From assembly GCA_048885535.1 (NCBI GenBank), contig JBHLLO010000058.1, forward strand, positions 1 to 19,750: 19,750 nucleotides of DNA, read 5' to 3'. Shown in pieces: positions 1 through 19,750 of the stretch. Position 1 is the stretch's first letter. Each line of letters begins with the position of its first letter. Made by a program: the position numbers and the translations under genes. The DNA is from Candidatus Hermodarchaeota archaeon (GTDB lineage Archaea > Asgardarchaeota > Lokiarchaeia > Sigyniarchaeales > SOKP01). Below the pieces are notes generated by a model that worked only from the letters and a program-made list of their open reading frames with translations, was not told the origin of the DNA and ran no database searches.

Positions 1-42
1 TTTATTTCAAAAACTATCAAAAATAAAGGTTTAAGTGGAAAA

Positions 43-483: not shown

Positions 484-545
484 ATGGTTAAAATTGAAAT
501 AGCATATTATTTTGTAAAATTAATAAAAAAAGGGTGAAAATATTA

Positions 546-1568: not shown

Positions 1569-1583
1569 TTAATTATAGATATA

Positions 1584-2243
1584 ATGAAAGAAATAAAATA
1601 TGACCAATTAAGAGGAAATTTTCTCAAATATACCAGAAAAGCATTTGCAATTCTTCCAGAAATGCATAAACCTCGTATTCTTGATATTGGTTGTGGCTTT
1701 GGTATACTTACCGTAGAATTAGCTAGACTAAGCAATGGAGAAGTAATAGGAATAGACATTGATCAAGCTGCATTAGATGATCTAAATAATAGAGCTAAAA
1801 TCCTTGGATTATCTAATCGTATTAAAGCTATGAATTGTTCGATGTTAGAATTAAAATTTCAAGATGAGAATTTTGATATTATTTGGGCAGAAGGTGCTAT
1901 AAGACCAATTGGTTTTAAAAGAGCCTTAAAAGAATGGGGTAGAGTACTTAAAAATAATGGTTTCATGGTTGTTCACGATGATCTAGTTGGAAAGAAAAAT
2001 AAATTAAAACAGATCCCTAAATATGGATATTTATTATTTCATGAGTTCCAACTACCTGATGATGCATGGTGGGTAGAGTATTATTATCCTTTAGAGAAGC
2101 AAATTAATAAATTAAGTATTATATATAATGAAGATCCAGAATTTTTGGAAAAAATTGAAAGATTTCAAGACGAGATCGAAATATATAAGAAGGGCCCTAG
2201 TGCTTTTCGTTCAATTTTTTATATACTTCAAAAAAGAATATAA
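1584..2243 (+). CDS. Class I SAM-dependent methyltransferase
   Basis: Motif I ILDIGCGFG, acidic post-I GIDID, FDIIWAEGA, VLKNNG. Confidence 0.9.
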   Translation: MKEIKYDQLRGNFLKYTRKAFAILPEMHKPRILDIGCGFGILTVELARLSNGEVIGIDIDQAALDDLNNRAKILGLSNRIKAMNCSMLELKFQDENFDIIWAEGAIRPIGFKRALKEWGRVLKNNGFMVVHDDLVGKKNKLKQIPKYGYLLFHEFQLPDDAWWVEYYYPLEKQINKLSIIYNEDPEFLEKIERFQDEIEIYKKGPSAFRSIFYILQKRI

Positions 2244-2257
2244 GTAAAGTGAGAGAT

Positions 2258-4774: not shown

Positions 4775-4787
4775 AAGATAGATCTTT

Positions 4788-5210
4788 TTATTCTTTATCA
4801 TTTTTTTGAGGGTTTTCTTTTCCTGTAAATTTATTTATCAATTTTTGAATTTCTTTGCCTAATTTCGAATTTAAACTAGGATGGTTTTCTGAAGGAAGAT
4901 CTATTCCCATAATTGGAGTCAAAATCTTACCTTCTTCATCTATAACATTATATTCTTTCAGAATACTTTTTTTAGTCTCTAATTCTTCATCATTTGATAT
5001 CCAAAACATACCTTTAGGACAATTTATCAAAATTTTTGTAACTAAATGTATCTGTATCTTACAATTTGGACATGTATAATAATATTTATCGTCAAGGAAA
5101 TTTTGGATCAGTTCTGGATTTAACCAAGTATTAATCGATGCTGCCCAAGTAACCCTAAAATTATTTTTACAGTGGGGACAATTTAGTTCAGTACTAGTTA
5201 AACGCGTCAT
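4788..5210 (-). CDS. CpXC-domain protein
   Basis: CPHC...F...W..SIN...NPEL...CPNC pattern of the CpXC family. Confidence 0.75.
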   Translation of the reverse strand: MTRLTSTELNCPHCKNNFRVTWAASINTWLNPELIQNFLDDKYYYTCPNCKIQIHLVTKILINCPKGMFWISNDEELETKKSILKEYNVIDEEGKILTPIMGIDLPSENHPSLNSKLGKEIQKLINKFTGKENPQKNDKE

Positions 5211-5290
5211 TATTCACTCTACCTATTTTAAGAACTTAAAAGTTTTTTGCTTAAATATTAAAACATGATTATTATTTTAATTTATTGTTT

Positions 5291-5350
5291 TGAATATATA
5301 TTCACTTGTCGCATATGTGCGTCAGTAGTGTCACAATATTTATATATTGT
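5291..5350. promoter_or_regulatory. Divergent promoter/operator region upstream of actin: two inverted repeats flanking three phased heptamers
   Basis: Perfect palindrome TGAATATATATTCA (5291-5304); TGTCGCA/TGCGTCA/TGTCACA at 5307, 5318, 5329; ACAATAT-N4-ATATTGT (5333-5350) overlapping TATA-like TTTATATA (5339-5346). Confidence 0.5.
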
Positions 5351-5406
5351 TTTTTATATTTTAATCTTACAATAAAATTTATTAAAAATAAAATGGTGGG
5401 TTTTGT

Positions 5407-6552
5407 TTGTCAGTCAATGGGGATTTTATTGGACAAAAGCCAATTATAGTAGACAATGGAACTGGAATCTCAAAGAATGGTTATGGTGGAGAGGATCAGC
5501 CTCGCTCGGTTTTCCCTACTATGATAGGAACACCCAAATATGGAACTGTTATGCCTGATGTAGAACACTTCTCCAGAGAATATTATATTGGTGAAGAAGC
5601 AATGGAATTAAGAGGTCTTTTAAGTCTTAAATTTCCAATTGAGCATGGTATTGTAGAAGATTGGCCTGCTATGGAAAAGTTATGGCATTATACATTTTAT
5701 ACTGATCTACGAATTGATCCTTCGGAACACCCAATTCTTCTTACAGAAGCTCCACTAAATCCACGTTATAATAGAGAAAAAATAGCTGAAATCATGTTTG
5801 AGACGTTCAATGTGCCTGCATTATATGTCGCGATGCAAGCAGTGTTATCTTTATATGCTTCAGGTAGGACAACAGGTACAGTAATAGATATCGGGGATGG
5901 TGTATCTCACATAGTACCGATTTATGAAGGATTTGCATTAAGTCATGCTATACAACGAACTGATTTAGCCGGTCGAGATATAACTAGATATTTACAGAGA
6001 TTATTAAGACAAAAAGGATATTCATTTGAAACAACTGCAGAAACAGAAATTGTAAGAGATATTAAAGAAAAGCTATGTTATGTAGCAATAGACCCAGAAA
6101 AGGAACTTTTACTCTCAAAAAAGGTTACAGGTATAGAAAAAAATTATATGCTTCCTGATGGTGAAACTATTACTCTAGGAATAGAAAGATTTCTAGCTCC
6201 TGAGTGCTTTTTTAATCCGTCAGTTATAGGGAAAGAACTGGACCCAATCGATGATCTTATCGTAAGTTCTATTTCTGAATGTGATGTTGACCTTCGCCGA
6301 GATTTATATAGTAATATAGTCCTTTCTGGTGGTTCTACTATGTTTCCTGGGATTAAAGAAAGATTAACTAAAGAAATAAAAGAAATGATCTCTGAATCCG
6401 TGGACGTAAGAATCATTAGTCCTCCAGAACGAATGTACTCAGTATGGATTGGAGGTTCGATTTTAGGCTCATTAAAAACTTTTCATAGAATGTGGATTAC
6501 TAGGCGTGAATATAAAGAATATGGTCCGTCCATTATACATAGATGTTTTTAA
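5407..6552 (+). CDS. Asgard actin (eukaryotic-actin-like)
   Basis: DNGTG phosphate-1 loop, [78 protein letters not shown]-terminal GPSIIHRCF; TTG start with GGTGG at 5395-5399. Confidence 0.97.
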
Positions 6553-6566
6553 TTATTTTATCTAAA

Positions 6567-6580
6567 TTTTTTTTTATTTT
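6567..6580 (+). terminator. Possible archaeal T-tract terminator/attenuator after actin
   Basis: T9 run (6567-6575) followed by ATTTT, starting 15 nt after the actin stop. Confidence 0.35.
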
Positions 6581-6603
6581 ATATTGAAGTGGTTGAGTAA
6601 AAG

Positions 6604-7806
6604 TTGGAAAAAATTGTAAGAAAATTAGATAAGTATGTTTCAAAAGATAGTAGGATAATTTCAACTACTATAATCGAAGGTGAAAATAATATTCTTTATT
6701 CATCAGATAATTGGGATATTTCTGGTGATTTAGAAAGTATTAACGCTTTATGGAATTCAGAAAATCTCGGTGAATTAATTATTGAAAATATTAAATACAA
6801 GGTTTTACAAAATTCTTCAGAAAAGCTTGTTGCTGTAAATTTGGAGAAGAAAGGGAGCATAATTGGTTTTAAAGATAGTGAAAGGAAAATAATCAGCAGA
6901 ATCGAGCCTGGTGAATCTGCTTATTTAGGTTTAATAGAAACTTCAAGAACTTTGGGGGAATTAAGTAAAAAGAAACCTTATTTAAATCCAAAAGTGATTT
7001 TAGGAAAAGATAAAGAAATCAAATGGGCGACTCCAAAAGTCCTCCTCGATGATGCTCAAAATCTTCAAAGATTGGGCTTATTAAAAGCAGGGTTATCATT
7101 CGAGGAGGCAAAAGTATATTTAACCTTGCTTCAAAGTGGCGAAAGAGGGGAAAAAGTAGGAAATTTAAATAAAAAACTAGAGATAAAAAGGACAACAATA
7201 TATCGAATTATAGAACGGTTAGTAAATAAAAGGTGGGTAGATAAAGTAATGGAAAGACCAACTGGTACAACAATCTATGTTGCTCGACCTCTTAATGAAA
7301 TTATTGATAATTTAATTAGAGATAAAGAAAATGAATTAAAGTTGCTAAAGAGCTTCAGATATATTATGGGAGAAAGTTCAGAGAATGGATGGATTGATGT
7401 TTCTAAAGATTTTAACACTTTAGGAATCGTTGGTGTAGAAAAAGATTGTGGTTTAATCATCTTTGAATATGGTAAAACTGTTAAGGAAGAAGTTATTCTA
7501 CAAGCAGCTTTACAATTGTCTTATGAGAAATTAAAGGAACATTTGCAACCAGAACCCGAAATTGAAGAATTCACAATTCCTGATTTAGAAGAAATCAAAA
7601 TAATTCATAGGAAAATTGATGATTATTTTGGAGCTATTATGGAATTGAAATTTAAGGAGGGAAGTGCTATAGCAAATAATGTTGGAACAGATTGGATCGT
7701 AGCTGCTAAACATGTTGCAGTACCTATTGATGATAAAATTTATGTGATTTGGGGTTCTGAAGAGAAGTTTCCAATCTTGTTGAGTATAATTTTAAAAATT
7801 AGTTGA
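6604..7806 (+). CDS. Profilin-like domain fused to TrmB-type winged-helix domain and an unknown C-terminal alpha/beta domain
   Basis: aa 1-120: IIEGENNILYSSDNWDISGDL...LIIENIKYKVLQNSSEKLVAVNLEKKGSIIG resembles Loki profilins; aa ~155-250: GLSFEEAKVYLTLL...LEIKRTTIYRIIERLVNKRWV...YVARP is the TrmB N-terminal wHTH pattern. Confidence 0.75.
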   Translation: MEKIVRKLDKYVSKDSRIISTTIIEGENNILYSSDNWDISGDLESINALWNSENLGELIIENIKYKVLQNSSEKLVAVNLEKKGSIIGFKDSERKIISRIEPGESAYLGLIETSRTLGELSKKKPYLNPKVILGKDKEIKWATPKVLLDDAQNLQRLGLLKAGLSFEEAKVYLTLLQSGERGEKVGNLNKKLEIKRTTIYRIIERLVNKRWVDKVMERPTGTTIYVARPLNEIIDNLIRDKENELKLLKSFRYIMGESSENGWIDVSKDFNTLGIVGVEKDCGLIIFEYGKTVKEEVILQAALQLSYEKLKEHLQPEPEIEEFTIPDLEEIKIIHRKIDDYFGAIMELKFKEGSAIANNVGTDWIVAAKHVAVPIDDKIYVIWGSEEKFPILLSIILKIS

Positions 7807-7838
7807 TGCTTTTAATTCGGATAATCATAAATGCATCT

Positions 7839-8429
7839 TTAAATTTCCTTTTTAATCTCATCATAAAAATTCATAATAATCTTATGCCTCTTTTCAGCAA
7901 TTTTTTTTGAGATATCAAGGAATAATAAATCCTTAATTTTAAGAATTTTTTCTTCCAAATGTTTAATTACATCATTCAAATTACCTTTCTTTTGAATAGT
8001 ATACCCAATAGTTCGGTATAACCCGATTGCTCCAATTGCATCTAATTTATCAGCATCAGATAAAATCTTTGCCTCAAGAGTTCTTGGTTTTATATTATTT
8101 GAAAATGAATGTGATTTGATACAATGAATTATATTTTCTAATTCTTCATCAGTAATATTAAAATTTTGAGAAGTTAAATACATTTTAGCAAGATTGGCAG
8201 AAATTTCAGCATGGCCTTTCTTGATTCTAATATCTTTCTCTTTTTTTCTCCCTAGATCATGGAGTAAAGTCGATATTTTTAAGATTTTTAGGTTAGCATT
8301 AAGTTGGTTCCCCAAAATCAAGCATAAATTGTAAACTCTCTCAATATGAGGAAATCCATGAATATCATCTAATTCAGAGTTAACAATTATATGATCACGA
8401 ATAATCTTAATGAAATTTTCATTTTTCAT
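7839..8429 (-). CDS. HD-domain metal-dependent phosphohydrolase
   Basis: HGFPHIERV, LLHDLGR, HA, HS, DADKLDAIGAIG. Confidence 0.9.
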   Translation of the reverse strand: MKNENFIKIIRDHIIVNSELDDIHGFPHIERVYNLCLILGNQLNANLKILKISTLLHDLGRKKEKDIRIKKGHAEISANLAKMYLTSQNFNITDEELENIIHCIKSHSFSNNIKPRTLEAKILSDADKLDAIGAIGLYRTIGYTIQKKGNLNDVIKHLEEKILKIKDLLFLDISKKIAEKRHKIIMNFYDEIKKEI

Positions 8430-8528
8430 TGGAAAATTCTTTCAAATTTTTCAATTATTTATTATATATTAGGAAAAACAAAAAAGTAAATAAATTATTG
8501 AGTTTAAATAAAAACCTTGTTTAAATTA

Positions 8529-10217
8529 TTAAACTTCTTCTCCTCGTCTTTTTGCTTCGATATCTTTTAATTCTTTTCTCTGTACTTTACCAACCAGTGT
8601 TTCTGGAAGTTCTTTTCTGAATTCAATGAATTTTGGGACTTTATATGGAGCAACATTTTGTCTTAAGAATTCCTTTATCTCATTTTTAATTTCGTCACTT
8701 TCTGGGTACCCATCTTTTAAAACAAGATATGCTTTAACTTTTTCACTTCCAGGTAGGTCAGGATCTGGTATACCTATAATAGCAGCATTTTCTATAGCAT
8801 CATGTTCGAATAAGACATCTTCAAGTTCTCGAGGATATACCTTAAAGCCGCTGACATTTATCATATCCTTCTTTCGATCAACAATGTAGAAATAGCCATC
8901 CTCATCCATCTTTCCGATATCTCCTGTTAAAACCCATCCTTCCTTTAATTGATTAGCTGTTTCCTCTGGTTTATTCCAATATCCTTTAAATACTTGAGGA
9001 CCCTTCATCATAATTTCTCCTGCTTCGCCAAGAGGAACAATTTTTGTGTAATCTTCAATATCAACTATCTTAACTTCTGTATCAGGTATTGGCATCCCTA
9101 CAGAACCAATTTTTCTTTCTCCTGCTATTGGATTACTATGTGTTACGGGAGAAGTTTCTGTCATGCCATAACCTTCTAATACTTTTCCACCTGTTCGTTC
9201 TTCAAATTCTTTAAGAACTTCTGGAGGCATTGGTGCTGCTCCTGTGTTACAAATTCTGATAGATTTAAGATATTTAGCATAATCTTCTAAGTCATCTCTT
9301 TCCAAAAGACGCATATACATGGTTGGAACTCCTGGAAACATCGAAGGTTGAGTGGATTTAATCACTTCAAATAGAGATTTTTGATCCCGCGCATCAGGAT
9401 TTAAAGCTATTGTTGAAGCAAAATATATGTGTATATTCATACAGACAGTTTGACCATAAATATGAAAAAGAGGTAAATTAGTCAAAATAGTTTCCTTACC
9501 TCTTGATGATGCTTGACCAATCCAAGAAAGAGTTGCTAGGCTATTTGATACAAGGTTATAATGAGTCAGCATCGCACCCTTTGGTACTCCCGTTGTTCCT
9601 CCTGTGTATTGAAGGCAAGCAATATCCTCCTTTGCACTAGTTTCGAATTTGGGTGGACTTGGTTTTGTATTATCGACCAAATTGAGGAATTGTAGAGTTC
9701 CTGCTATCTCGGGAGGATTCCTTGGAGCCATTGGAGAATAATCTAGAACATTTGTTATTATAACATTCCTTAAACGAGTTCTATCTCTAATTTTATTGAT
9801 TTTTTCAACTTGATTATCCCACGCAATAATAGTTTCAGCTCCAGAATCGTTTAATTGGTACATTAATTCATGTTCTGTATGTAGAACACTAACACAAGTA
9901 ACTATTCCACCAGCCTTCAATATTCCATAATAACTCATTATAAATTGAGGGAAATTTGGAATCATAATAGCTACAACATCGCCTTTCTTAACACCCAAAT
10001 TAACAAGTGCTGTAGCTAATCTATCTGTTATATCTTTCAATTTTTTATATGAGATTTTATTTTTTGAAAACCAAATTGCTGTCCGGCTTCCAAAATCTTT
10101 TGTCGAATTGTCTAAAAACTCATAGATATTCATTTCAGGATAATCTATATGGGCTGGAACGCCCTCATCATAATGTTTTAACCAAGGTTTTGAAGCATAG
10201 GGATTCATTTCACTCAT
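8529..10217 (-). CDS. fadD: Long-chain fatty-acid--CoA ligase (AMP-forming)
   Basis: YTGGTTGVPKG AMP-binding motif, EGYGMTETSP, TGDIG, DRKKDMI, LPETLVGKV. ATG at 10217 (MSEMNPY) is chosen because GGAGGT lies at 10234-10229. Confidence 0.92.
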   Translation of the reverse strand: MSEMNPYASKPWLKHYDEGVPAHIDYPEMNIYEFLDNSTKDFGSRTAIWFSKNKISYKKLKDITDRLATALVNLGVKKGDVVAIMIPNFPQFIMSYYGILKAGGIVTCVSVLHTEHELMYQLNDSGAETIIAWDNQVEKINKIRDRTRLRNVIITNVLDYSPMAPRNPPEIAGTLQFLNLVDNTKPSPPKFETSAKEDIACLQYTGGTTGVPKGAMLTHYNLVSNSLATLSWIGQASSRGKETILTNLPLFHIYGQTVCMNIHIYFASTIALNPDARDQKSLFEVIKSTQPSMFPGVPTMYMRLLERDDLEDYAKYLKSIRICNTGAAPMPPEVLKEFEERTGGKVLEGYGMTETSPVTHSNPIAGERKIGSVGMPIPDTEVKIVDIEDYTKIVPLGEAGEIMMKGPQVFKGYWNKPEETANQLKEGWVLTGDIGKMDEDGYFYIVDRKKDMINVSGFKVYPRELEDVLFEHDAIENAAIIGIPDPDLPGSEKVKAYLVLKDGYPESDEIKNEIKEFLRQNVAPYKVPKFIEFRKELPETLVGKVQRKELKDIEAKRRGEEV

Positions 10218-10296
10218 TATATATATATACCTCCAAAAAATAGATAACTCATAATAATTCAAAAGATTTATTATAAAATAAAAAGGTTTTGATAAA

Positions 10297-11817
10297 TTAC
10301 CTTTCTAGGCTATCCAAGGCAGTTATAGCAGATTCACAAACATAATCACATTTGTCTTGTATAAGAGCTTTCAAACCTGAAACAACTTCTGGTGTAGTTA
10401 CACCAATTCTTGCCAGTGCTTCAGTTGCTCTCCATCTAACATCTGGATTTTTATCATTTAACGCATTTATCAATGATGGAATTGCTTTTTCAGCAAATTT
10501 ACCTAATTTACCTATTGATAACGCGACTGCTCTGCGTACAAACTCCGATTTATCATTTAAAGCATGTATAAGAGCAGATAAAGCATCTTCTGATTCAATT
10601 CCGATAAGTCCTAATGCCCTTGCCGCTTCTACTCGAACATTTTTTTTCCCAGTATTCAAAACTTCAATCATGAATGGGATAGCTTCTTTTGCGTCAACAC
10701 CGATACCCCCAATTGAAGAAATAATCATTTTTTTGCGTCGTTTATTAGTTATAAAATATTTAGCTATATAGTAGAGAGTAAAAATTAGAGGGCTTATTAA
10801 GGATAAAACTAGTATGAAGTTTACAAGAAAATTTGAAAATAATAATACTATATACCAAAGAAGGTAGTACCCAGCATATACCAAAGAAGGTAGTATCCCA
10901 TACAATATCGGATAAAATGAAAACCTCATATTCTCATTATAAGCTTTGATTAATAAAGGTACAGAATCTTTCCCAATCGAGTGAAGAGCATCAGCAGCTT
11001 TTCCTTGAATAATTTCATTGTTATCTCTTAATCCTAAATATAAATTTTCTATAACTTTAGGATCTGATATTTTTAACTCTCCTAAAGTTTCAATAGCTTC
11101 TTTTCTTACAATCAGATTTTCATGATTTAATAGATCTAATATAGATGGTATCGCTGTTTCTCCCATCTCAGCTATTGTGTTAATTATTCTATATCTTACT
11201 CTCCAATCCTTATCATTAAGCGCTGAAATTAAACTTGGAAGAGCTTCTATAGATCCTTTTCCAATTTTACTTATTGCTTGAGCGGTGGCAGTCCTAACCG
11301 CCCAACTAATATCTTTAAGGCTTTTCATTAAATAAGGAATTGAATCACTTGCTTCAGGACCAATAAGTCCAAGAGCATTTGCTGCTTCTATTCGAACTTC
11401 TTCATTATTATCTTTTAATGCTTTATTTAAACTATTTAAAGATTCAGGAGTGGGATTCTTTATCTTGCCTAATGAGACTGCTGCTTCTTTTCGAATTGAT
11501 TCATATTCACTGTTTAATAATTTAGTGAGTTCTGGGACAGCTTCTTTTACACTACTTCCAATCTTTCCTAAGGTTCGAACGGTCTCACGACAGACACTCC
11601 AATCCTCATCTGATAGACAGTTTATTAATTTTGACGCTACAATAGCCGATTTCTCTCCTAATTCTCCTAAAATAAATATCGCATTAAATTTAATTGACCT
11701 GATTTCATTATCTAAATTTTTAATTATTTGATTGATAATTGAAGGATCTTTTTCAATTCTTGCTAATATTAAATCAATTCTGGCATCTCTGAGTAGTTTT
11801 TCTAAAGTAACTGACAA
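10297..11817 (-). CDS. HEAT/PBS-lyase-like repeat protein with an internal transmembrane hairpin
   Basis: Repeated L..AL.D....VR..AA.ALG.IG units; hydrophobic stretch aa ~298-356; TTG start with GGGTGA upstream. Confidence 0.85.
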   Translation of the reverse strand: MSVTLEKLLRDARIDLILARIEKDPSIINQIIKNLDNEIRSIKFNAIFILGELGEKSAIVASKLINCLSDEDWSVCRETVRTLGKIGSSVKEAVPELTKLLNSEYESIRKEAAVSLGKIKNPTPESLNSLNKALKDNNEEVRIEAANALGLIGPEASDSIPYLMKSLKDISWAVRTATAQAISKIGKGSIEALPSLISALNDKDWRVRYRIINTIAEMGETAIPSILDLLNHENLIVRKEAIETLGELKISDPKVIENLYLGLRDNNEIIQGKAADALHSIGKDSVPLLIKAYNENMRFSFYPILYGILPSLVYAGYYLLWYIVLLFSNFLVNFILVLSLISPLIFTLYYIAKYFITNKRRKKMIISSIGGIGVDAKEAIPFMIEVLNTGKKNVRVEAARALGLIGIESEDALSALIHALNDKSEFVRRAVALSIGKLGKFAEKAIPSLINALNDKNPDVRWRATEALARIGVTTPEVVSGLKALIQDKCDYVCESAITALDSLER

Positions 11818-11828
11818 TTTAAATCACC

Positions 11829-12542
11829 CTAAATTCCTAAATATACTTCTTTTATTCTAGGTTCTCGTTCTAATTCATCTTTTGTGCCTCTCATTTCAAT
11901 TTTTCCTTCTTCCAAAACATGAATAGTCTCAGAAACATCCATGGCTAATACAGCATCTTGTTCAACTAATAATATGGTAGTACCCTCTTCTTTTATTTTT
12001 TGTATGGCTTTAAATATGTTATTTTTAATTTTAGGAGCTAATCCCAAAGATGGTTCATCCATTAAGAGTAATTTTGGATTTGACATAAGAGAACGTGCGA
12101 TAGCAAGCATTTGCTGTTCACCACCACTGAGAGTCCCGGCTCGCTGCTTTTTTCTCTCCTTAAGACGTGGAAAAAGTTCAAATATCATCTTTATTAATTC
12201 TTTATATTTTGTTTTATCTTTTAGTGAATAGGCACCCATACGAAGGTTTTCCTCGACATTCATATCATAAAAAAGTCTTCGACGTTCTGGACAATGCCCA
12301 ATTCCCATTCTTGCGATTTTATAAGCTTTTTCCTCGTCTATTCTTACTCCTCTAAAGATAATTTTTCCTCTGTCAGGTTCTTCTAAGCCAGAAATCACTT
12401 TTAGGAGTGTAGACTTACCAGCACCATTAGGTCCAATAACAGAATCTAATGATTTTTCTTCTATTTTTAAATTTACTTCTTCAAGGCTTTTAGCTTTTCC
12501 ATAATAATGATAAATTTTTTTTAATTCAAGCAAATTCTTCAC
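11829..12542 (-). CDS. livF: HAAT (LIV) family ABC transporter ATP-binding subunit
   Basis: GPNGAGKST, LFPRLKER, LSGGEQQMLAIAR, LLMDEPSLGLAP, LLVEQ; true start may be TTG at 12533. Confidence 0.92.
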   Translation of the reverse strand: MKNLLELKKIYHYYGKAKSLEEVNLKIEEKSLDSVIGPNGAGKSTLLKVISGLEEPDRGKIIFRGVRIDEEKAYKIARMGIGHCPERRRLFYDMNVEENLRMGAYSLKDKTKYKELIKMIFELFPRLKERKKQRAGTLSGGEQQMLAIARSLMSNPKLLLMDEPSLGLAPKIKNNIFKAIQKIKEEGTTILLVEQDAVLAMDVSETIHVLEEGKIEMRGTKDELEREPRIKEVYLGI

Positions 12543-13266
12543 CTCTACCTAAATATGCCTCAAGAACTATTTTATTATTAGCCACTTCTTTTGGGGGGCC
12601 ATCAGCTATAAATTTACCTTGATGCATTGCAATTACTCTTGGGACTAATGACATTAATTCCCTTAATACATGTCCCGTGATAAATATAGTTACTCCATCA
12701 TCATGTAATTTTTTAATTAAATCTGTAATAACATCTTGTTCTTCGTGACCAAGACCACTGAAAGGCTCATCAAGAAGTAGCAATTGGGGATTAGTGCCAA
12801 TTGCTTTACCAATTTGGAGTTTTCTCAAATCACCATGAGGTAAAATAACTGGTGGTATTCTAGCTTTGTCGATAAGTCCGACAGAAGCGAGGATTGAACT
12901 AGCATACTCCTCAACCCCAATATTTCTTGCAACTACTTTTCCTCGTGGTGAAAGACATGAAACTGTAACATTATCAAGGAGATTTAGATACTTAAACGAT
13001 CTTACTAATTGAAAAGTTCGGGCAATTCCTAAATTTACAATTTTATAAGGCTTCTTGCCTGAAATATTAATTCCATCAAATCTTATACTGCCTGCATTAG
13101 GCTTTTCAAAACCAGATATTAAATTAAACACTGTAGTTTTTCCAGCACCATTCGGTCCAATTAAACCAACAAATTCTCCACGTTTAATTTCAAAACTGAA
13201 ATCATTAACAGCTGTAAGTCCACCAAATTTCTTCGTTAAATTTTTAACCTCTAAAATTATACCCAT
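12526..13266 (-). CDS. livG: HAAT (LIV) family ABC transporter ATP-binding subunit
   Basis: FGGLTAV, GPNGAGKTT, GIARTFQ, LLLLDEP, C-terminal VLEAYLG. Confidence 0.9.
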   Translation of the reverse strand: MGIILEVKNLTKKFGGLTAVNDFSFEIKRGEFVGLIGPNGAGKTTVFNLISGFEKPNAGSIRFDGINISGKKPYKIVNLGIARTFQLVRSFKYLNLLDNVTVSCLSPRGKVVARNIGVEEYASSILASVGLIDKARIPPVILPHGDLRKLQIGKAIGTNPQLLLLDEPFSGLGHEEQDVITDLIKKLHDDGVTIFITGHVLRELMSLVPRVIAMHQGKFIADGPPKEVANNKIVLEAYLGRGEEFA

Positions 13267-13309
13267 CTTTTAAAGCACTGTATTTTAATATTTAACTTTA
13301 TGATTATTT

Positions 13310-14338
13310 TTACCTTCCTAGCAGGAGATCCCATAAATCTTTTAAACGCTCTAAAGCAGGTCTTAATATTCCCTGTGACACAAATCGAATTATAAGTATT
13401 AGCAAAATTGAAAACACAAATCTTGGATCAAAAAAAGCTCCCAAAATAGGAATGGGAGCTAATTGATCTAAATCTCTAAGAATTTCGCTTAGAAAAATAA
13501 ATGTGAATGCTCCTAAGGCTGATCCAGAAATTGATGCAATACCACCTAATGCGGCCATTATCAAAACAATAAATGAATAATACGGTTGGAAAATTTGGGG
13601 GTTTACACTCCTATTATACATAGCAAAAAGGCAACCAGCCAATCCAGCGAATAAGCTACTAATCATGAAAGCAAAAACTTTATATTTCGTTACATTTATT
13701 CCTGAGGCCCTAGAACCCGTTTCATCATCACGAATAGACTTAAAAATTGTGCCCATCTTAGATTTGGTAATTTGAATCATTATTATCATAGAAAGACACA
13801 TAAATATCAATATAGTGAAATAAAATATTACATAATTATTGGAGAGGGGTGGAATACCAGATATTCCTTCCTCACCCCATAGAAAATCTTTGAATTGGGG
13901 TATTCTAAATAAGCTCATTAACATTATGCCAATAACCATAGTACCTAGAGCTAAGTATGGACCTTTTAACCTTAAACAAACGATTCCTATTAGAAAACCA
14001 ATTCCCACCGAAACTAACGTCCCAACAATTAATGATGCCCACCACGGAAAGTCATTGAACATAAGAGTAGCACTAAATGTATAAGCTGAAGTTCCAAAAA
14101 AAATAGCATGTCCAAAACTTACTTGTCCTGCAAATCCAGCAAGAAAATCCCAACTAGCTGCAAAAATAGCAAATATCATTGCAAGTACAAAAATTCCCAA
14201 AAAATAAGCATTTTGAGTCAAGATTGGAAAAGTAAAAAGTCCTATTAAACATACCAAGGTTAATGCTCCTTTGAAAGAAGATGCCCAATCTTTTAAATAT
14301 TTGGGAAATCCCTCTAACTTTTCTTTTATTTTACTCAT
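13310..14338 (-). CDS. livM: HAAT (LIV) family ABC transporter permease
   Basis: GFAGQVSFGHAIFFG, RLKGPYLALGT, SIRDDE..S..SGIN, LGG. Confidence 0.9.
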   Translation of the reverse strand: MSKIKEKLEGFPKYLKDWASSFKGALTLVCLIGLFTFPILTQNAYFLGIFVLAMIFAIFAASWDFLAGFAGQVSFGHAIFFGTSAYTFSATLMFNDFPWWASLIVGTLVSVGIGFLIGIVCLRLKGPYLALGTMVIGIMLMSLFRIPQFKDFLWGEEGISGIPPLSNNYVIFYFTILIFMCLSMIIMIQITKSKMGTIFKSIRDDETGSRASGINVTKYKVFAFMISSLFAGLAGCLFAMYNRSVNPQIFQPYYSFIVLIMAALGGIASISGSALGAFTFIFLSEILRDLDQLAPIPILGAFFDPRFVFSILLILIIRFVSQGILRPALERLKDLWDLLLGR

Positions 14339-14380
14339 TCTAAAAAACCATCCTTAGATTATGGGCTTAATTTATTTTCC

Positions 14381-15253
14381 TCAACTAATTTCTTTTTTAC
14401 CAAATAATCCTCTAGGTCTAATTACAAGAATTATAATTATAATCACGATTGGAACTAACGAGGAGTAGACAGGATCGAGAAAAGAATCTGTAAGGAGTCT
14501 AGCATACCCTAGAATGAAAGCTCCAATTACACTACCAGGTAGACTTCCCATCCCTCCAAGAATTACTACAGCAATTGCATTTGTAAGTATAGGCCATCCT
14601 TTATATGGCGCTACCAAATCCAAAGGCACATACAGTATAGCAGCTGTACCCGCAAGAAATGCTGATATCATCACAGTATACATAAGAATTCTATCAGCAT
14701 TTATACCCATTAACATGGCTGCCTCTCGATCCTGGGAAACTGCTCGAATAGATTTCCCGAGTTTAGATTTTTTTATAAAAATTGTGACCAAAACTACAAA
14801 TACTAATGATAATATAATAAGTATAATCCAATGTACTTGAACTTGTAAACCAAAAAATTGTACCCTCTGATCCCAAATAGTTGAAATTGAATGGGTATCT
14901 GGATCACTTATTGCGATTACTAACTGTTCGCAAAAAAAACCTATTGCAAACGTTCCAATTAGAACACTTATTTCATGCCCTTTTAAAGGCTTTATAAGCA
15001 ATAAATATGAAAGCATACCTACTGTAGTTGCTGCAATTAAAGCTAAAACCATCCCTAAATAAAAACCCAATAAGGGGAATGCACCAAGATATAACCAAGT
15101 TAAATAAAAAGTATATGCCCCAATTAAGTAATAAGCACCATGAGCTAAATTTAAAATACCACCCACTCCATATACTAAAGAATACCCTAATGCGATCAAT
15201 GCATTAACAGCACCTTGTGCTGTTCCGTAAAAAATTATATCTTCACCAGCCAA
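14381..15253 (-). CDS. livH: HAAT (LIV) family ABC transporter permease
   Basis: ALIALGYSLVYGVGGILNLAHG, LGKSIRAVSQDREAAMLMGIN, VILGGMGS, RPRGLFG. Confidence 0.92.
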   Translation of the reverse strand: MAGEDIIFYGTAQGAVNALIALGYSLVYGVGGILNLAHGAYYLIGAYTFYLTWLYLGAFPLLGFYLGMVLALIAATTVGMLSYLLLIKPLKGHEISVLIGTFAIGFFCEQLVIAISDPDTHSISTIWDQRVQFFGLQVQVHWIILIILSLVFVVLVTIFIKKSKLGKSIRAVSQDREAAMLMGINADRILMYTVMISAFLAGTAAILYVPLDLVAPYKGWPILTNAIAVVILGGMGSLPGSVIGAFILGYARLLTDSFLDPVYSSLVPIVIIIIILVIRPRGLFGKKEIS

Positions 15254-15545
15254 ATACTTTAACCTCTCTACTCAATTTAAACAGAGTGAATTTTATTATT
15301 CTAGTTAAATTTTGCTAAATCCTAATTCGATTATAAAAATCTATTTCTAATGTAAATTATTTTGTGTCGATTATTTAAAAAGCTTTTTATTCAATCATTT
15401 TCAAATATGCTAATCAATGTCCTTAATTTAATAAAAATGTCAGAAATTTTTAATTCCCAAATCAAAAATTATAAATCTTTAAATATATGTTTATCTCAAT
15501 TAGAAAATGTTAATCTAAAATTTATACAAAAAAGTGATTTTAAAA

Positions 15546-16997
15546 ATGGAAAGAAGAACAAAAAGAATTTTAGCTATAGTACTAGTCGCAATAATTGGTA
15601 CAGCTTCAGGAATTACCATATGGTTAGTTTTAAGACCATATCAATGGAGCGCTGCAGATTGCCCTGGTGTAACACATTTAGATATACCCCCAGAGCGAAT
15701 AATTAAAATAGGAGTTATAGGTGATCTTAACCGAATACAAGGAGAAGGCCAAAAAAATGGAGCATGGCTAAGAGCGTATGAAATCAATACTCACGGTGGC
15801 ATAGATATTGGTGGCACCACCTACTATATTGGAATAACTGCTGAAAATTCAGATGAAGCTAATCCTATTCTTGATACCTCTATTGGTGTAGCAGCGGCGC
15901 AAAGGCTTATTGACTATAAACAAGTTCAATTTGCCACAGGTGGATTTAGAACTGAAGCATTACTTGCATATCGAGACTTTTTCATGGAAAGAAAGATTAT
16001 TTTTATGAATACTGGAGCCGCTACCTCTACTTTTTGTAAAAATGTTTCAAATAATTATCCTGTATATAAATACTTTTTCCAACCTAATCCAATCAATACA
16101 ACTTCCTTGGCTAAAGAATTAATAACTTTAATTATGGGCACAGCATATGTATTAAGCCTTCCAGTTCCATTTGGAACAGGGCATAATGTTACCAGATTTT
16201 CATTTATGAGAGAAGCGTTAACCTGGACTGAAGACTTCCGAAATGCTATGGTTGCTGTACTAACAAACCTAACAGGTACAAATCCATTGTTTGAAATGGA
16301 TTATACTGGTACAGATATAGCATTTCCCCAGGATGTGCAACCAGCACAATTGAATACCTATTGGCAATGGATTGAAAATAATAATACTCAAATTGTAATC
16401 CCTATAATCTCTGGTGTTGCAGGACTACCATTTGTTAATACTTATGCTGATAATACACCACATTGTATCCCAATTGGTATTAATGTAGAAGCTCAAGCTG
16501 GTGATTTCTGGACTAGAACTGGCGGAAAATGTGAGTATGGAGTTACTCTTGAATCTGTATTTAAAACAAATAAAACTGAAAAGACACTCAAATTCTGGAA
16601 TAATTATATTGGTAACCATACCAATTTTGGTTCGCCTACTCCAATTTCGCCAATTTATACCGCTACTGGCAGTTATGATGCGGTCAACCAATTAGCTTGG
16701 GCAATCGAAACAGCTCAATCCTTAAATCCTGACACTATTGTTTCAACATTAGAAACTTTAAACAGAACAAATTACCTTGTAGGTGCTGGGGGATGGGGTT
16801 CTTATGATCCTAGTCATTGTATTACAGAAGGGTGGCCATATGGAACAGCTCTAGCTATTCAATGGTACAGTGGGAATAAGACAATGGTTCCAGGACCAGG
16901 CATATATCCAAGTGGTTTAGGAATAATTTCCCCATATCCACTACAGAATATGTCTCCGCTTCAATTACCATCCTGGGGCCTATACTATTACGATTAA
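15546..16997 (+). CDS. Membrane-anchored HAAT/LivK-type substrate-binding protein
   Basis: Basic N-terminus plus hydrophobic anchor (MERRTKRILAIVLVAIIG...), IKIGVIG, EINTHGGI, GGFRTEA, YDAV..LA.AIE.AQSL; divergent from livHMGF; alternative start GTG 15534. Confidence 0.85.
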   Translation: MERRTKRILAIVLVAIIGTASGITIWLVLRPYQWSAADCPGVTHLDIPPERIIKIGVIGDLNRIQGEGQKNGAWLRAYEINTHGGIDIGGTTYYIGITAENSDEANPILDTSIGVAAAQRLIDYKQVQFATGGFRTEALLAYRDFFMERKIIFMNTGAATSTFCKNVSNNYPVYKYFFQPNPINTTSLAKELITLIMGTAYVLSLPVPFGTGHNVTRFSFMREALTWTEDFRNAMVAVLTNLTGTNPLFEMDYTGTDIAFPQDVQPAQLNTYWQWIENNNTQIVIPIISGVAGLPFVNTYADNTPHCIPIGINVEAQAGDFWTRTGGKCEYGVTLESVFKTNKTEKTLKFWNNYIGNHTNFGSPTPISPIYTATGSYDAVNQLAWAIETAQSLNPDTIVSTLETLNRTNYLVGAGGWGSYDPSHCITEGWPYGTALAIQWYSGNKTMVPGPGIYPSGLGIISPYPLQNMSPLQLPSWGLYYYD

Positions 16998-17014
16998 AAT
17001 TAAATAACTATAAA

Positions 17015-17028
17015 TTTTCTTTTTTTTT
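17015..17028 (+). terminator. Probable T-tract terminator after the substrate-binding protein gene
   Basis: TTTTCTTTTTTTTT shortly after the stop, in a convergent intergenic gap. Confidence 0.45.
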
Positions 17029-17085
17029 AACTTATTGAAAAAATGGAAAGCCTAACTAGAAAAATTCATTTTCTTTTCTTTTATT

Positions 17086-18051
17086 TTATAATTTTAATCG
17101 GATAGATTTAGTTCTATAGTTAAAACTTTCAGTTTCATTAATACATTTATATGTATTATTATCAAATATAAATTTAAGTGCATAAGCATTACTAAATGCA
17201 TAGCTTTCAGCTAAAATTAATATTACAATGATGTTTCTTTTGTTTTCCTGAATAAACGGTATTATACACTTCCATTTATTAAAGAATACATATTTCTTAC
17301 TTAATGAAATAGCTTTTTCAAAAAATTTCATTTCTTTTGAACCTTTTTCTATTTTAAATTCTAATAAATTAATCTCCTTTGAAAAAAATTGATACTTTTT
17401 AATTAATTTAAACAAAAGAATGTTTTCAAAACTCTGGTTTTCATAAACAAAATAGATAAAAGGAAATAATCCCGGAATGTAAAGGGTATTAGGAGGTAAT
17501 TTTGCTTGAATCCATATTTTTGAAATAAAACGATATAAGAAATAAACTAAGTAAAATCCAAAAAAGTATTGAAATAGATATGAAAAAAAAAGTTGTGGTA
17601 AAAAGAAGTATAATAATGAATAGAAAACAATAACAAGACCAGAGATTAGAGCCAATACTAAATTGATTGCCCTATCTATGAAAAATCTATATCTCTTTTT
17701 AGAGAATGGATAAAAAATAGGGATTTTTGATGCTGTTACTAAATCAAGTGAAATATGGATACTATAAAATAGAAATCCCACAAACCAAGCAATAATAAAT
17801 TGTTCAATGGTTATGATTGTAAATATTATTGCAGTGAAAAAAGAAAAGATTAAAGCTGTGAAATAGGAATGTGATAATCCTTTATGGGACAAAAAATTTG
17901 ATTTTATAATCAGCCGTAATGGTGCTAATAGTATATCGAAATCAGCAATTATAGCCATTATTACAGCATAAAGAGCTATACTGAACGGCAACGAGTTAAG
18001 AGTATTGATACTTATGAAGATTCCTATTAAGAAATGTGTGAAGAAATCCAT
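17086..18051 (-). CDS. YdjM-like membrane metal-dependent hydrolase
   Basis: MDxxTH, DFD, HKGLSHS, HISLD motifs, PIFYPFS, multiple TM segments. Confidence 0.8.
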   Translation of the reverse strand: MDFFTHFLIGIFISINTLNSLPFSIALYAVIMAIIADFDILLAPLRLIIKSNFLSHKGLSHSYFTALIFSFFTAIIFTIITIEQFIIAWFVGFLFYSIHISLDLVTASKIPIFYPFSKKRYRFFIDRAINLVLALISGLVIVFYSLLYFFLPQLFFSYLFQYFFGFYLVYFLYRFISKIWIQAKLPPNTLYIPGLFPFIYFVYENQSFENILLFKLIKKYQFFSKEINLLEFKIEKGSKEMKFFEKAISLSKKYVFFNKWKCIIPFIQENKRNIIVILILAESYAFSNAYALKFIFDNNTYKCINETESFNYRTKSIRLKL

Positions 18052-18150
18052 AAGTACTCGAAAATTTAAATTAGGAATTATTTTTTAAGTTTCAGATTTT
18101 AAAATAAAGGGTAAAATAGCTTATATATTTTTTTATAAAAACTAAGGAGG

Positions 18151-18204
18151 CAATCCTTTTGTCAATCTTTCACTAAATTTTATTAAAAGATTTCATCCAA
18201 ATTG
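18151..18204 (-). promoter_or_regulatory. Eukaryote-like SECIS element (selenocysteine insertion hairpin)
   Basis: Minus strand CAAUUU-GG-AUGA-AAUCUUUUAAU-AAAA-UUUAGUGAAAGAUU-GA-CAAAA-GGAUUG: helix I, AUGA/GA core, ~11-13 bp helix II, unpaired-A apex 11 nt after the core. Confidence 0.75.
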
Positions 18205-18687
18205 TTAAATTAGTTTATTAAAATAGTGGGTAAAATTTTCATTTTCTTTACCATATTTCTGACGAATAATTGTTTTAAGTGTTCCCATATCTAATCTCTC
18301 TTTTACTTTTTCTCATCAACATCCTACATCCGGTTGTAATTGAATAAAACTATCAGGGTATAAATTGAATTCGATATTTTCCCTAATAGGATTAAATTTA
18401 CGCATAATTCCATCTTCGTCAGGTGCATAAGCGAATACTCCAACATCATCATAAATTAGACCTTCTTCTATGTTTACAAATAATTGAAGGTAACTATAGA
18501 TATAGTCCTCATACAACGGAAATATTGTATTTGTTGGATCTTCCATTTCTATCTTATCAACTAATGCTAATGCTTCAATAAATGTAGCATTATCATTTAG
18601 TTCAAGAGAATACTTTTTACCCTGTTGAAGTCCTTTAATTGGTATACTAATTTCAAATTCTATCTTTTTAATTTGTAAATCACCCAA
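18205..18687 (-). CDS. Putative selenoprotein: ubiquitin/MoaD-like beta-grasp domain with Gly-Cys-Sec-Sec and a 35-aa tail (160 aa; 123 aa if UGA = stop at 18316)
   Basis: LELNDNATFIEAL...LFVN...LYPDSFIQLQPDVG resembles ThiS/MoaD/Urm1; TGT TGA TGA then 35 sense codons to TAA (18207-18205); SECIS-like hairpin starts at the next base. Confidence 0.7.
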
Positions 18688-18698
18688 AATTATGATGT

Positions 18699-18974
18699 TT
18701 ATATTAAACCTTTTTCTTTAAGTAAGTTTGGCAAATCTCTTTTCAATGAAAACGCAGCGGTGTATTTTCGTTCATTTTCTACTAAAATTGTGTTTCCTTG
18801 TAAGTTAAGGTCTCGAGCTTCCTCAGAATTAAGATTTTTTGTATTATGTTCAATAAATTTAATATAAGGAGTTAATACAATAAAAACTCGATTCATAAAC
18901 TTATCCCATTCGCAAGCACAGCTATCTAATGGCACAAAAATATCTACTTTTAACTTATTACTTTTTTCCACCAT
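18699..18974 (-). CDS. Small thioredoxin-like/ArsD-like protein with CxC motif
   Basis: KVDIFVPLDSCACEW (strand then Cys motif then helix), later TILVE strand; gaps of 11 and 15 nt to its neighbours. Confidence 0.5.
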   Translation of the reverse strand: MVEKSNKLKVDIFVPLDSCACEWDKFMNRVFIVLTPYIKFIEHNTKNLNSEEARDLNLQGNTILVENERKYTAAFSLKRDLPNLLKEKGLI

Positions 18975-18989
18975 TTATAACCTATAATT

Positions 18990-19307
18990 TTAAGAACAAT
19001 TACAAGATTGATTTGATTGATTTGATTGGTTTTTTACTCGGCTTCTAACATTCCATAGACATCCACAACCAGGTTGTTCTTGCATGATGATTGCTTGGGT
19101 GGGGCAATTCCTTTTACAAGCACTACATTCAGTACAAGTATTAGCGTTGGTTATTTCAAATTTTCCATTTTTACTTGGTTTTGGTAAACCAAAAGGGCAA
19201 ATTTCTCCACACAATCCACAACCATTGCAAAGATCTCTATCAATAAAGATATTTAGACTTTTTATGATTTCCTTAAAATCTAATGAATTAAAATCTATTT
19301 CTGTCAT
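18990..19307 (-). CDS. hgcB: 2[4Fe-4S] ferredoxin, HgcB-like
   Basis: CNGCGLCGEICP and CTECSACKRNCP (cf. HgcB CMECGAC..NCP), downstream GCGC (cf. GVGC), Cys-containing tail SCNCS; ATG 19307 with AGGTGG upstream. Confidence 0.7.
   Translation of the reverse strand: MTEIDFNSLDFKEIIKSLNIFIDRDLCNGCGLCGEICPFGLPKPSKNGKFEITNANTCTECSACKRNCPTQAIIMQEQPGCGCLWNVRSRVKNQSNQSNQSCNCS
19006..19032. repeat. 9-bp tandem repeat x3 encoding (NQS)3 in the ferredoxin tail
   Basis: gattgattt gattgattt gattggttt. Confidence 0.8.
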
Positions 19308-19351
19308 ATATACCACCTTTTATTTTTCAATATTATTAAATTAATTTTCAT

Positions 19352-19750
19352 TTAAAAAAATATGACTCCAATTGTTAATGATACTAAACTGATTATTAAA
19401 AATACTTTATTCAACAAACTAAATAGGGGATATTCAATTTCAATTTTTCTTGGACTTGTTGCCATTGTATAACCACTTGAAGACATTGTTGAAAAGAAAG
19501 CAATCCAAAAGAAAAATGGGATACTAAATAGCATATAGAGAATTGAATGATGTACCCACCACGTTAGCACTCCTAAAATACCAATATTAATAAATCCATA
19601 GAATATTCCTTTAATTACAAACTTCTGGGTAAATTCTGAAGTAGGAAAGGAGATGAATATAATCGCATTAGTAAATATGATCCAAAGACAGACTTCACCA
19701 ATCCACCATAGTTTATCAAAATCAGTAAAGATTGATAAAACCAAAAATAA
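19352..19750 (-). CDS. hgcA: C-terminal transmembrane domain of an HgcA-like corrinoid protein (5' part outside the window)
   Basis: Frame is open to the window edge; F..KG...G and FFSTMSSSGYTMATSPRKIEIE resemble HgcA 'FxxKG' and 'FLAMNFTGSTxxTSxSGVxKE'; lies directly upstream of an HgcB-like ferredoxin. The diagnostic cap-helix motif is not visible. Confidence 0.6.
   Translation of the reverse strand, partial: LFLVLSIFTDFDKLWWIGEVCLWIIFTNAIIFISFPTSEFTQKFVIKGIFYGFINIGILGVLTWWVHHSILYMLFSIPFFFWIAFFSTMSSSGYTMATSPRKIEIEYPLFSLLNKVFLIISLVSLTIGVIFF

Follow-up and report, generated by a model that had tools for sequence, protein, structure and literature searches.

The window, that is, the whole stretch of DNA analysed here, is one entire contig (C58, positions 1-19,750; JBHLLO010000058.1) in the assembly of a Candidatus Hermodarchaeota archaeon (G000; GCA_048885535.1), a genome of 3.09 Mb in 112 contigs that is 91.6% complete and has its closest database proteins in Promethearchaeota, Lokiarchaeota and Hermodarchaeota metagenome-assembled genomes. 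Four co-directional minus-strand genes lie at its right-hand contig edge, namely the 3' part of a gene for an HgcA-like corrinoid protein, a gene for an HgcB-like ferredoxin, a gene for a 91-aa protein with a CxC motif, and a gene with two adjacent in-frame TGA codons, which very probably encodes a selenoprotein of the beta-grasp fold class (Table 1). The gaps between the genes are 35, 15 and 11 nt, with the first gap being 35 nt from the GTG start of the ferredoxin gene and 44 nt when counted from its ATG. Inspection of the open reading frames (ORFs) bore out the coordinates and gaps given in the preliminary description of the locus, which had been made from the letters alone, and likewise the motifs noted there, which are GCGC and CNC in the ferredoxin, CAC in the 91-aa protein and Cys-TGA-TGA (CUU) in the last ORF. 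Loci, genomes and contigs are denoted below by L, G and C numbers where they have to be told apart.

Table 1. Features at the right-hand end of the window (positions of the window)
Feature	Positions	Strand	Remarks
HgcA-like fragment: C-terminal membrane domain, last 132 aa of a CpaM-like methyltransferase::HgcA-like corrinoid protein	19352..19750	-	ORF open at contig end, 5' part cut off
HgcB-like 2x[4Fe-4S] ferredoxin, 108 aa, GCGC motif and Cys-rich tail	18990..19316	-	Fer4 Pfam matches; best NCBIfam match HgcB_ferredoxin NF040864
Ferredoxin start	GTG at 19316	-	alternative ATG 9 nt downstream
91-aa thioredoxin-fold (predicted) CxC protein	18699..18974	-	invariant C19-x-C21-x-W23 at the thioredoxin active-site position
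160-aa beta-grasp selenoprotein (predicted)	18205..18687	-	translated with TGA=U; stop TAA 18205-18207
123-codon ORF ending Gly-Cys before TGA-TGA	18316..18687	-	conventional reading of the selenoprotein gene
Two adjacent UGA codons	18313..18318	-	Sec124 = 18316-18318, Sec125 = 18313-18315; Cys123 = 18319-18321
SECIS-like 3' UTR element	18129..18204	-	covariation and covariance model R1
YdjM-like membrane protein, co-directional, downstream of SECIS	17086..18051	-	Pfam YdjM 62.2 bits; operon membership only possible

When TGA is read as selenocysteine (Sec, U), the last gene encodes 160 residues, with a fold made up of residues 1-122, then Cys123-Sec124-Sec125, and finally a helical tail of 35 residues, which corresponds to 35 in-frame codons up to the TAA. 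A tblastn search with the tail alone located it in frame behind TGATGA in the orthologues of two related genomes (G018 and G010), and both the tail and TGATGA are kept in a copy of a third genome (G008), the N-terminal domain of which is 36% identical and in which the preceding Cys is replaced by Asp. The read-through protein as query matches 130 of the 154 genomes of the order, many of them with several copies; among the best 150 of 174 matches, every full-length match has at least two, sometimes three, in-frame TGA codons, and the only two with fewer than two are N-terminal pieces that cover residues 2-85 and 2-80. Distant matches from other families of the order, at 25-32% identity, possess two TGA codons in six of six cases. 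Three motif types occur in the family, G-C-U-U as in the window (type A), H-A-D-U-U (type B) and S-U-G-U-U with three Sec (type C), and flanking residues vary while TGATGA stays, down to 25% identity. The type C members at L080:3223-3663 (-) and L083:2638-3087 (+) thus have three Sec within four residues.

The alternative that TGA-TGA represents a double stop, with the protein ending at Gly-Cys and the downstream conservation reflecting an RNA element or a separate small ORF, can draw on public gene calls, which terminate this 'hypothetical protein' at the first TGA, and on a GTG or TTG codon located three codons past the second TGA in 26 of 29 close orthologues. The window copy, however, is devoid of this GTG, and the tail is conserved as a protein. 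Across the 29 orthologues, in which TGATGA is invariant, pairwise substitutions in the tail at codon positions 1, 2 and 3 amount to 2656, 1525 and 4686, an excess at the third position, and 2746 of 6274 differing tail codons are synonymous, while the other two reading frames are closed by stops in 28 and in all 29 orthologues. As in addition TGATGA persists in changing flanks, a selenocysteine insertion sequence (SECIS) follows the gene and the AlphaFold2 (AF2) model packs the tail onto the domain at high confidence, a double stop is highly improbable; that TGA-TGA specifies two adjacent selenocysteines in a real selenoprotein gene, as the preliminary description had proposed for the fourth gene, is very probable on the evidence of tail and TGATGA conservation, coding signature and SECIS.

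A tRNA-Sec gene is found in the genome next to the genes for SepSecS (385 bits) and a SelB-like factor (230 bits, under the bacterial selB cut-off of 242) on contig C73, and the SelD gene itself carries an in-frame TGA (Sec-SelD). As TGA is the ordinary stop of 4 of the 18 window genes, there is no genome-wide reassignment of this codon. In four related loci (L034 of G010, L052, L054 and L060) the selenoprotein gene even terminates with TGA, a few nucleotides before the AUGA of the SECIS, with the conserved Sec TGAs lying 35-40 codons upstream of the terminating TGA, which suggests that UGA is read position-dependently within one mRNA. Tandem selenoprotein paralogues, in which a type A gene precedes a type B gene or a type C gene precedes a type A gene, are found at L071:4021-4930, L072:4039-4960, L079, L080, L081 and L083. 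In L071 and L072 no separate SECIS belongs to the first paralogue, which leads directly into the second; one SECIS would thereby serve four UGA in two genes, as has been described for hdrA-frhD.

The SECIS-like element in the 3' untranslated region (UTR) consists of AUGA at 18193-18196, an 8-bp helix (18185-18192 with 18164-18171), an A-rich loop and GA at 18162-18163. Directly after this core an extra 3' hairpin, in which 18154-18159 pairs with 18143-18148 around a UUGCC loop in the window, is kept as AGGA-UUGCN-UCCU in the window (18143-18159 (-)) and in 47 related loci, with both-side changes in four of its six pairs. In the alignment of 48 distinct sequences 90.8% of the cells are paired over both helices and 10 of 14 pairs display both-side changes, as exemplified by pair 14-42, which is AU in 33, GU in 6, CG in 4, UA in 3 and GC in 2 sequences and unpaired in none. 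The observed values are reached by 0 of 500 shuffles, and slid controls are 41-57% paired, with a maximum of 56.6%. As the single-sequence fold of the 3' UTR is not better than shuffles (z -1.2), the structure rests on this covariation. A covariance model built from these elements (R1) has two matches in the whole genome, the window 3' UTR with 83.4 bits and a site with 40 bits (E 4e-5) immediately downstream of the hdrA-mvhD/frhD selenoprotein pair, the ORFs of which carry in-frame UGA at known positions. An Rfam scan of 17900-18400 with E up to 10 retrieved no SECIS family and only a chance match to nos_TCE. By this layout the element is assigned to the eukaryote-like Asgard SECIS type, which has been described as lokiSECIS with an AUGA_GA core, an A-rich apical loop and a location in the 3' UTR (Mariotti et al., 2016, PMC4989117; Huang et al., 2024, PMC11227280).

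The AF2 model of the selenoprotein, based on a 40-sequence alignment (A1), has a predicted local distance difference test value (pLDDT) of 89.9 and a predicted template modelling score (pTM) of 0.88, with the tail helices 125-129 and 134-145 at pLDDT 94-95. The Cys-Sec-Sec block has the lowest pLDDT (71), which suggests that it is a flexible linker between a beta-grasp domain and the helical tail. Structural alignment of residues 1-122 with VIA-align retrieved the transcobalamin beta domain (Z 8.0), SAMP1 (4hro, 7.8), CysO (4n6e_B, 7.5), HVO_2177 (7.3) and MoaD proteins (6.5-6.9; 1vjk 6.9), all at root mean square deviations (rmsd) of 3.1-3.9 A over 81-93 residues (3.1-3.7 A for 4hro, 4n6e_B and 1vjk) and with the carriers aligned over residues 5-126, but as these Z values lie in the range that the tool calls common for unmatched models, the model is assigned to the fold class and not to a family. 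Foldseek against the Protein Data Bank (PDB) gave no match at E <= 1e-3 for this model, with the beta-grasp theme appearing weakly. None of the 40 members has a Pfam family, ThiS/MoaD included, at a credible E-value, and neither NCBIfam nor a PDB sequence-profile search returned a match.

An exhaustive profile search over 1.84 billion representative proteins yielded no more than 75 clusters, the majority cut at the UGA, and no Cys-Cys form or other Cys-for-Sec homologue; full-length database proteins of 161-171 aa, considered as Cys homologues, were rejected as they are gene calls in which TGA has been read as Trp (GCWWEKV). Homology-based surveys of Asgard selenoproteomes would, with no Cys-for-Sec homologue at hand, miss the family. 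Indeed, the seven Asgard selenoprotein families of Huang et al. (2024, PMC11227280) were all found by homology to known ones, and the beta-grasp Cys-Sec-Sec family is neither among these seven nor among the 11 archaeal families of a 2026 review (PMC13188914) in the passages of the two papers that were searched. The review mentions no CUU, ubiquitin, MoaD or grasp, and the text available of Mariotti et al. (2016, PMC4989117) and of Sun et al. (2021) names only known selenoprotein families. NCBIfam names with '_UU' (ArsM fusions) were considered as a precedent for adjacent Sec and rejected, as the two Sec are not adjacent according to the motif column of the review. The gene in the window would add a widespread family to the archaeal selenoproteins, with adjacent selenocysteines as a motif absent from the published lists searched.

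Distant relatives without Sec occur in Bathyarchaeia (hhalign probability 99.5%), in which the Cys is kept and Ile/Thr/Val-Thr/Ser replace Sec-Sec (G-x-C-[ITV]-[TS]). At L093:959-2433 and L094:3919-5378 they overlap a DUF1786 gene (264 bits) at its stop, and MarR/RrpB-like regulators, thioredoxins as well as a heavy-metal P-type ATPase are encoded nearby in the Bathyarchaeia loci.

The 91-aa protein encoded directly upstream of the selenoprotein has no Pfam, NCBIfam or PDB-profile match. Residues C19, C21 and W23 are invariant in 27 orthologues, and this C-x-C-x-W lies where strand 1 ends, the site of CxxC in thioredoxins. Its AF2 model (pLDDT 90.2) retrieves thioredoxins with Foldseek at probability 1.00 and TM 0.53-0.68, none at E <= 1e-3 against PDB, and with VIA-align at Z 10.1 and an rmsd of 2.0 A over 78 aligned residues. 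On the strength of the model the protein is assigned to the thioredoxin fold, in agreement with the CxC thioredoxin-like protein that had been predicted from the sequence. The metallochaperone ArsD is absent from the best 50 rows of each fold search, and no ArsD Pfam, NCBIfam or PDB-profile match was obtained.

The HgcA-like fragment at the contig end is very hydrophobic and on its own matches no Pfam or NCBIfam family; its identity to a 556-aa orthologue (L027:4460-6130), over residues 425-555 of the latter, is 82%. This orthologue is composed of a class I S-adenosylmethionine (SAM) methyltransferase domain (Methyltransf_11, 48-146), a CdhD-like corrinoid domain (PF03599, 245-345, 50.2 bits) and a membrane domain. 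The best specific match of its N-terminal domain is CpaM, 'corrinoid protein-associated methyltransferase' (NF043040), with 147.6 bits against a cut-off of 180; a literature search found no paper linking the name 'CpaM' with corrinoid. The corrinoid and membrane parts score 173.5 against a cut-off of 285 with HgcAB_like (NF043039) and 163.3 against 275 with HgcA (NF040863). The orthologue matches positions 28-320 of the 325 positions of the HgcA model, with the window fragment representing the multi-pass membrane C-terminus. A cap helix GINVWC(A/G)ARG(N/D/G) is present in 13 of 13 loci from nine distinct genomes and three families, and the HgcA-like genes of the examined orthologues showed no in-frame UGA. 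The ferredoxin has two CX2CX2CX3C motifs and a conserved GCGCLW, and ends in a CNC tail in the clade of the window and in CC(G) in more distant orthologues; its best NCBIfam match, HgcB_ferredoxin NF040864, reaches 55.1 bits against a cut-off of 99.

A CdhD-like domain and a cap helix had been expected upstream of the fragment, and both are present in the full-length orthologues (13 of 13 loci), the upstream part of the window copy itself lying beyond the contig end. Of the predicted cap helix N(V/I)WCA(A/G)GK the Cys ligand is kept throughout, but the motif reads NVWC(A/G)ARG and not ...GK. The designation of the two genes as an HgcA and HgcB pair holds in so far as the orthologues possess the CdhD-like domain, the cap-helix Cys, the membrane domain and a Cys-rich HgcB, but not at the level of family assignment, as both proteins remain below the NCBIfam cut-offs. 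CdhD matches at the ends of contigs C10, C36, C48 and C44 were considered as the missing HgcA N-terminus and rejected, as they are two ordinary CdhD/CdhE-type genes (acetyl-CoA decarbonylase/synthase corrinoid) split between the C10 end and the C36 start and between the C48 end and the C44 start of G000. The C10 end and the C36 start encode the same 25-residue peptide, so that these contigs overlap and could be joined.

A search from the window fragment found the HgcA-like gene in 25 of 41 related genomes. Within the genus, the HgcA-like gene, HgcB, the 91-aa gene and the selenoprotein gene follow each other in this order in 9 of 11 loci, and the other two end at a contig edge after HgcB, so that the order holds in nine of nine informative loci. 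From the side of the selenoprotein, all four genes are found in 22 of the 30 best loci; L036, where the contig ends, has no HgcA-like match, L061 lacks the 91-aa gene, and in the remaining six no HgcA-like gene and no clear HgcB-like gene was seen within 1.5 kb. The supposition that the two small genes co-occur with hgcAB in other genomes is thereby substantiated for the genus. The YdjM-like gene follows the selenoprotein gene in 23 of the 30 loci.

The wider surroundings of the orthologues point to arsenic. In four of five 8.5-kb loci (L027, L028, L029 and L030) a gene for the arsenite exporter family ACR3 (TIGR00832, 270-295 bits, cut-off 282.8) is located directly upstream of the HgcA-like gene, and the same four loci possess a divergent ArsR-family regulator, in accordance with the ArsR-like regulator looked for upstream. 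Sometimes a DUF166 gene is inserted between ArsR and ACR3, as at L027:7224-7979 (-) and L028:825-1568 (+), with a weak match to the NCBIfam 'DUF166 family (seleno)protein DfsP' (41.9 bits, cut-off 200). The association is retained where the hgcAB-like genes are missing. The pair of the 91-aa gene and the selenoprotein gene stands directly behind ArsR-ACR3 in L077, L078 and L081, ACR3 precedes the selenoprotein gene alone in L082, and in L073 and L074 a type B selenoprotein gene is found behind ACR3 and a bona fide ArsM (NF008823, 356.7 bits, cut-off 263), with ArsM immediately upstream. A member from another family at 24-25% identity also adjoins ArsR and ACR3 (L086), and a CDF cation-efflux gene adjoins three distant selenoprotein members. 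Altogether, of 24 loci with a member of the selenoprotein family, 12 have ACR3 and 15 ArsR. In bacteria, acr3, arsC, arsM and arsR have been noted to flank hgcAB (PMC7438021), and a link between hgcAB and arsenic has been proposed and tested in strain ND132 (bioRxiv 10.1101/2022.10.17.512643).

Given this gene neighbourhood, it is reasonably probable that the cluster forms the last part of an operon for the handling of metalloids, with arsenic(III) as the most likely type, and that this operon is equipped with a Cys-Sec-Sec/CxC soft-ligand module. As ars operons that lack hgcAB-like genes also contain the pair, and as the selenoprotein gene by itself adjoins ArsM, the module would belong to ars operons, with hgcAB-like genes as frequent partners, rather than being specific for HgcAB. 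Of the preliminary proposal of a selenium-dependent accessory module for the methyltransferase, the module within an extended hgcAB-like cluster is thus retained and its dedication to hgcAB is not; the alternative offered there, a divergent HgcA acting on another substrate, is the better reading in view of the scores below the cut-offs, the methyltransferase fusion and the ArsR/ACR3 context.

Several observations weigh against a metalloid-handling operon. No ars gene lies within approximately 4 kb in three loci (L069, L070 and L075), and neither ACR3 nor the N-terminal approximately 424 residues of the HgcA-like gene are found anywhere in the assembly, incomplete as it is. The ars context of the window copy rests on orthologues that are 77-82% identical, as the window holds only the last 132 HgcA-like residues, and the synteny counts, drawn as they are from related genomes, lack independence. 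L029 and L031, from two other families, have the HgcA-like and HgcB genes but not the pair, which consequently is not required by the corrinoid system. The Bathyarchaeia relatives keep only the Cys and adjoin DUF1786 instead of ars genes, and the type B paralogues, with Asp-Sec-Sec, have two soft ligands, not three. Finally, the vicinal Cys-Sec could equally be a redox centre.

Such a redox centre is at the core of one competing explanation, in which a Gly-Cys-Sec-Sec selenenylsulfide or diselenide is cycled by the CxC protein, for example in an arsenate-reducing step or as a reductant of the corrinoid. In canonical ars operons arsenate is reduced by ArsC, and the pair sits after ACR3, in the usual place of arsC, while no ArsC, ArsD or ArsA was seen in the examined operons; among five genomes, the glutaredoxin-type ArsC (PF03960) is found in none, and good candidates of the low-molecular-weight protein tyrosine phosphatase (LMW-PTP) type, with 116-132 bits under the cut-off of 174, in only two. 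The thioredoxin fold of the 91-aa protein would suit a relay, as would a likeness of G-C-U to the C-terminal redox centre of thioredoxin reductase. On the other hand, an LMW-PTP ArsC-like gene exists at another site in G000, the CxC spacing departs from the CxxC of redox thioredoxins, and members of the family have ArsM and CDF efflux genes as neighbours, the products of which act on As(III) or metal cations rather than As(V). A redox relay is rather unlikely as the whole explanation but a serious competitor, and the pair may have both binding and redox roles.

Even less probable is that the cluster encodes a true mercury-methylating HgcAB, the selenium-dependent module of which would deliver Hg(II) or sequester methylmercury. 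Such a system would account for HgcA and HgcB being the best or near-best NCBIfam matches and for the cap-helix Cys, the membrane domain and the Cys-rich HgcB tail, and it would find parallels in the Cys-Sec and Sec motifs that bacterial HgcA and HgcB are reported to use (bioRxiv 10.1101/2022.07.06.499078) and in the Asgard HgcA homologues already known, which fall into the clade of fused HgcAB (PMC10083202). Yet the scores are far below the equivalog cut-offs (163.3 vs 275 and 55.1 vs 99), the cap helix deviates in all 13 loci, and the accessory pair occurs without hgcAB-like genes. Moreover, regulator and transporter of the operon are ArsR and ACR3, no mer genes were seen in the examined operons, and no feature of the context is specific to mercury.

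In a metalloid-handling operon the whole unit, as composed by orthology, would comprise ArsR, in some cases DUF166, ACR3, the CpaM-like::HgcA-like fusion, the HgcB-like ferredoxin, the CxC thioredoxin-fold protein and the beta-grasp selenoprotein, possibly extended by YdjM. Translation of the last gene through two UGA as Sec-Sec under the direction of the SECIS would place a Cys-Sec-Sec triad on a flexible linker, and this triad (or Sec-Gly-Sec-Sec) may form, together with CxC, a soft-ligand site for the binding and hand-over of As(III), or of Sb(III) or Hg(II). From there the metalloid might reach ACR3, to be exported, and, in clusters that have it, the methyl-corrinoid of the HgcA-like protein, with the fused SAM methyltransferase domain putatively charging the corrinoid and the HgcB-like ferredoxin re-reducing it. 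In that case the Cys-Sec that bacterial HgcA has in cis, in its N-terminal extension, would be provided in trans by the free Cys-Sec-Sec protein.

A tentative and on balance unlikely extension of this scheme is that the HgcAB-like system alkylates (or dealkylates) arsenic along a SAM-to-corrinoid-to-metalloid route and is fed by the Cys-Sec-Sec carrier on a ubiquitin-like scaffold. If this were true, the ancestral job of HgcAB would be metalloid chemistry with mercury methylation as a side reaction, and the Cys-Sec motif of bacterial HgcA would have a free-standing archaeal counterpart. The native function of HgcAB, including the proposed link to arsenic, is a live question in mercury research; the orthologous loci place an HgcAB-like corrinoid system physically inside archaeal ArsR-ACR3 operons and define genes with which the link can be tested.

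With respect to the remainder of the window, a branched-chain amino-acid-type ABC transporter set with two ATPases and two permeases is located just upstream of the YdjM-like gene at 11829-16997. It includes an opposite-strand gene for a 487-aa periplasmic-binding-protein homologue, and the same binding-protein gene flanks the cluster in G018. A full-length actin homologue of the Asgard 'lokiactin' type is encoded at 5407-6552 (+) (Pfam Actin, 440.7 bits over model positions 5-407 of 410), in keeping with the Loki-type Asgard archaeon to which the names of the closest database proteins point. A gene for a Cys-rich DUF3795 protein (1-483 (+)) lies at the left margin of the window, and DUF3795 genes are also found near selenoprotein paralogues of two other genomes, at L069:1000-1311 and L081:9515-9964.

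Among the closest known systems are ars operons composed of ArsR, ACR3 and ArsM; the orthologous clusters are likewise headed by ArsR and ACR3, some paralogues are accompanied by ArsM, and small Cys-rich proteins follow the pump. ArsC and ArsD also belong to ars operons, whereas the clusters described here have a CxC thioredoxin-fold protein and a Sec-Sec beta-grasp protein, both predicted, and often an HgcAB-like corrinoid system. With the published lokiSECIS elements (PMC4989117, PMC11227280) the window shares the AUGA_GA type, the site in the 3' UTR and the use of one SECIS for several UGA, and the family, in its tandem paralogues, the probable use of one SECIS for two genes. Compared with thioredoxins, which have a CxxC active site, the 91-aa protein has CxC in 27 of 27 orthologues. 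The sulfur and ubiquitin-like carriers SAMP1, CysO, MoaD and ThiS belong to the same predicted fold class as the selenoprotein, and their Gly-Gly tail sits where the latter has its reactive triad, right after the last strand; the carriers end with Gly-Gly, whereas the window protein lacks it and has Val-Gly-Cys-Sec-Sec internally, with 35 residues beyond.

The orthologues of the HgcA-like and HgcB-like proteins share with the HgcA/HgcB pair (NF040863, NF040864) a CdhD-like corrinoid domain, the cap-helix Cys, a C-terminal membrane domain and a 2x[4Fe-4S] partner with extra Cys, and differ from canonical HgcAB by the cap helix WC(A/G)ARG and by the position behind ArsR and ACR3. As in the HgcAB-like fusion/CpaM system (NF043039, NF043040), they are linked with a CpaM-type SAM methyltransferase, with all scores below the cut-offs, and SAM has been reported as the methyl donor of HgcAB (PMC11588087). 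While the described HgcAB-like fusion joins HgcA with HgcB, the reverse is found here, with the methyltransferase fused to the N-terminus of the HgcA-like protein and HgcB encoded by a separate gene. NCBIfam models for HgcAB-like fusions and for CpaM are already available, and what the window adds is the link of the putative beta-grasp selenoprotein family to HgcAB-like genes. In most bacterial HgcA a CU motif is found within an extension at the N-terminus (bioRxiv 10.1101/2022.07.06.499078), whereas the archaeal clusters have the methyltransferase domain at this end, and Cys-Sec would reside on a separate small protein.

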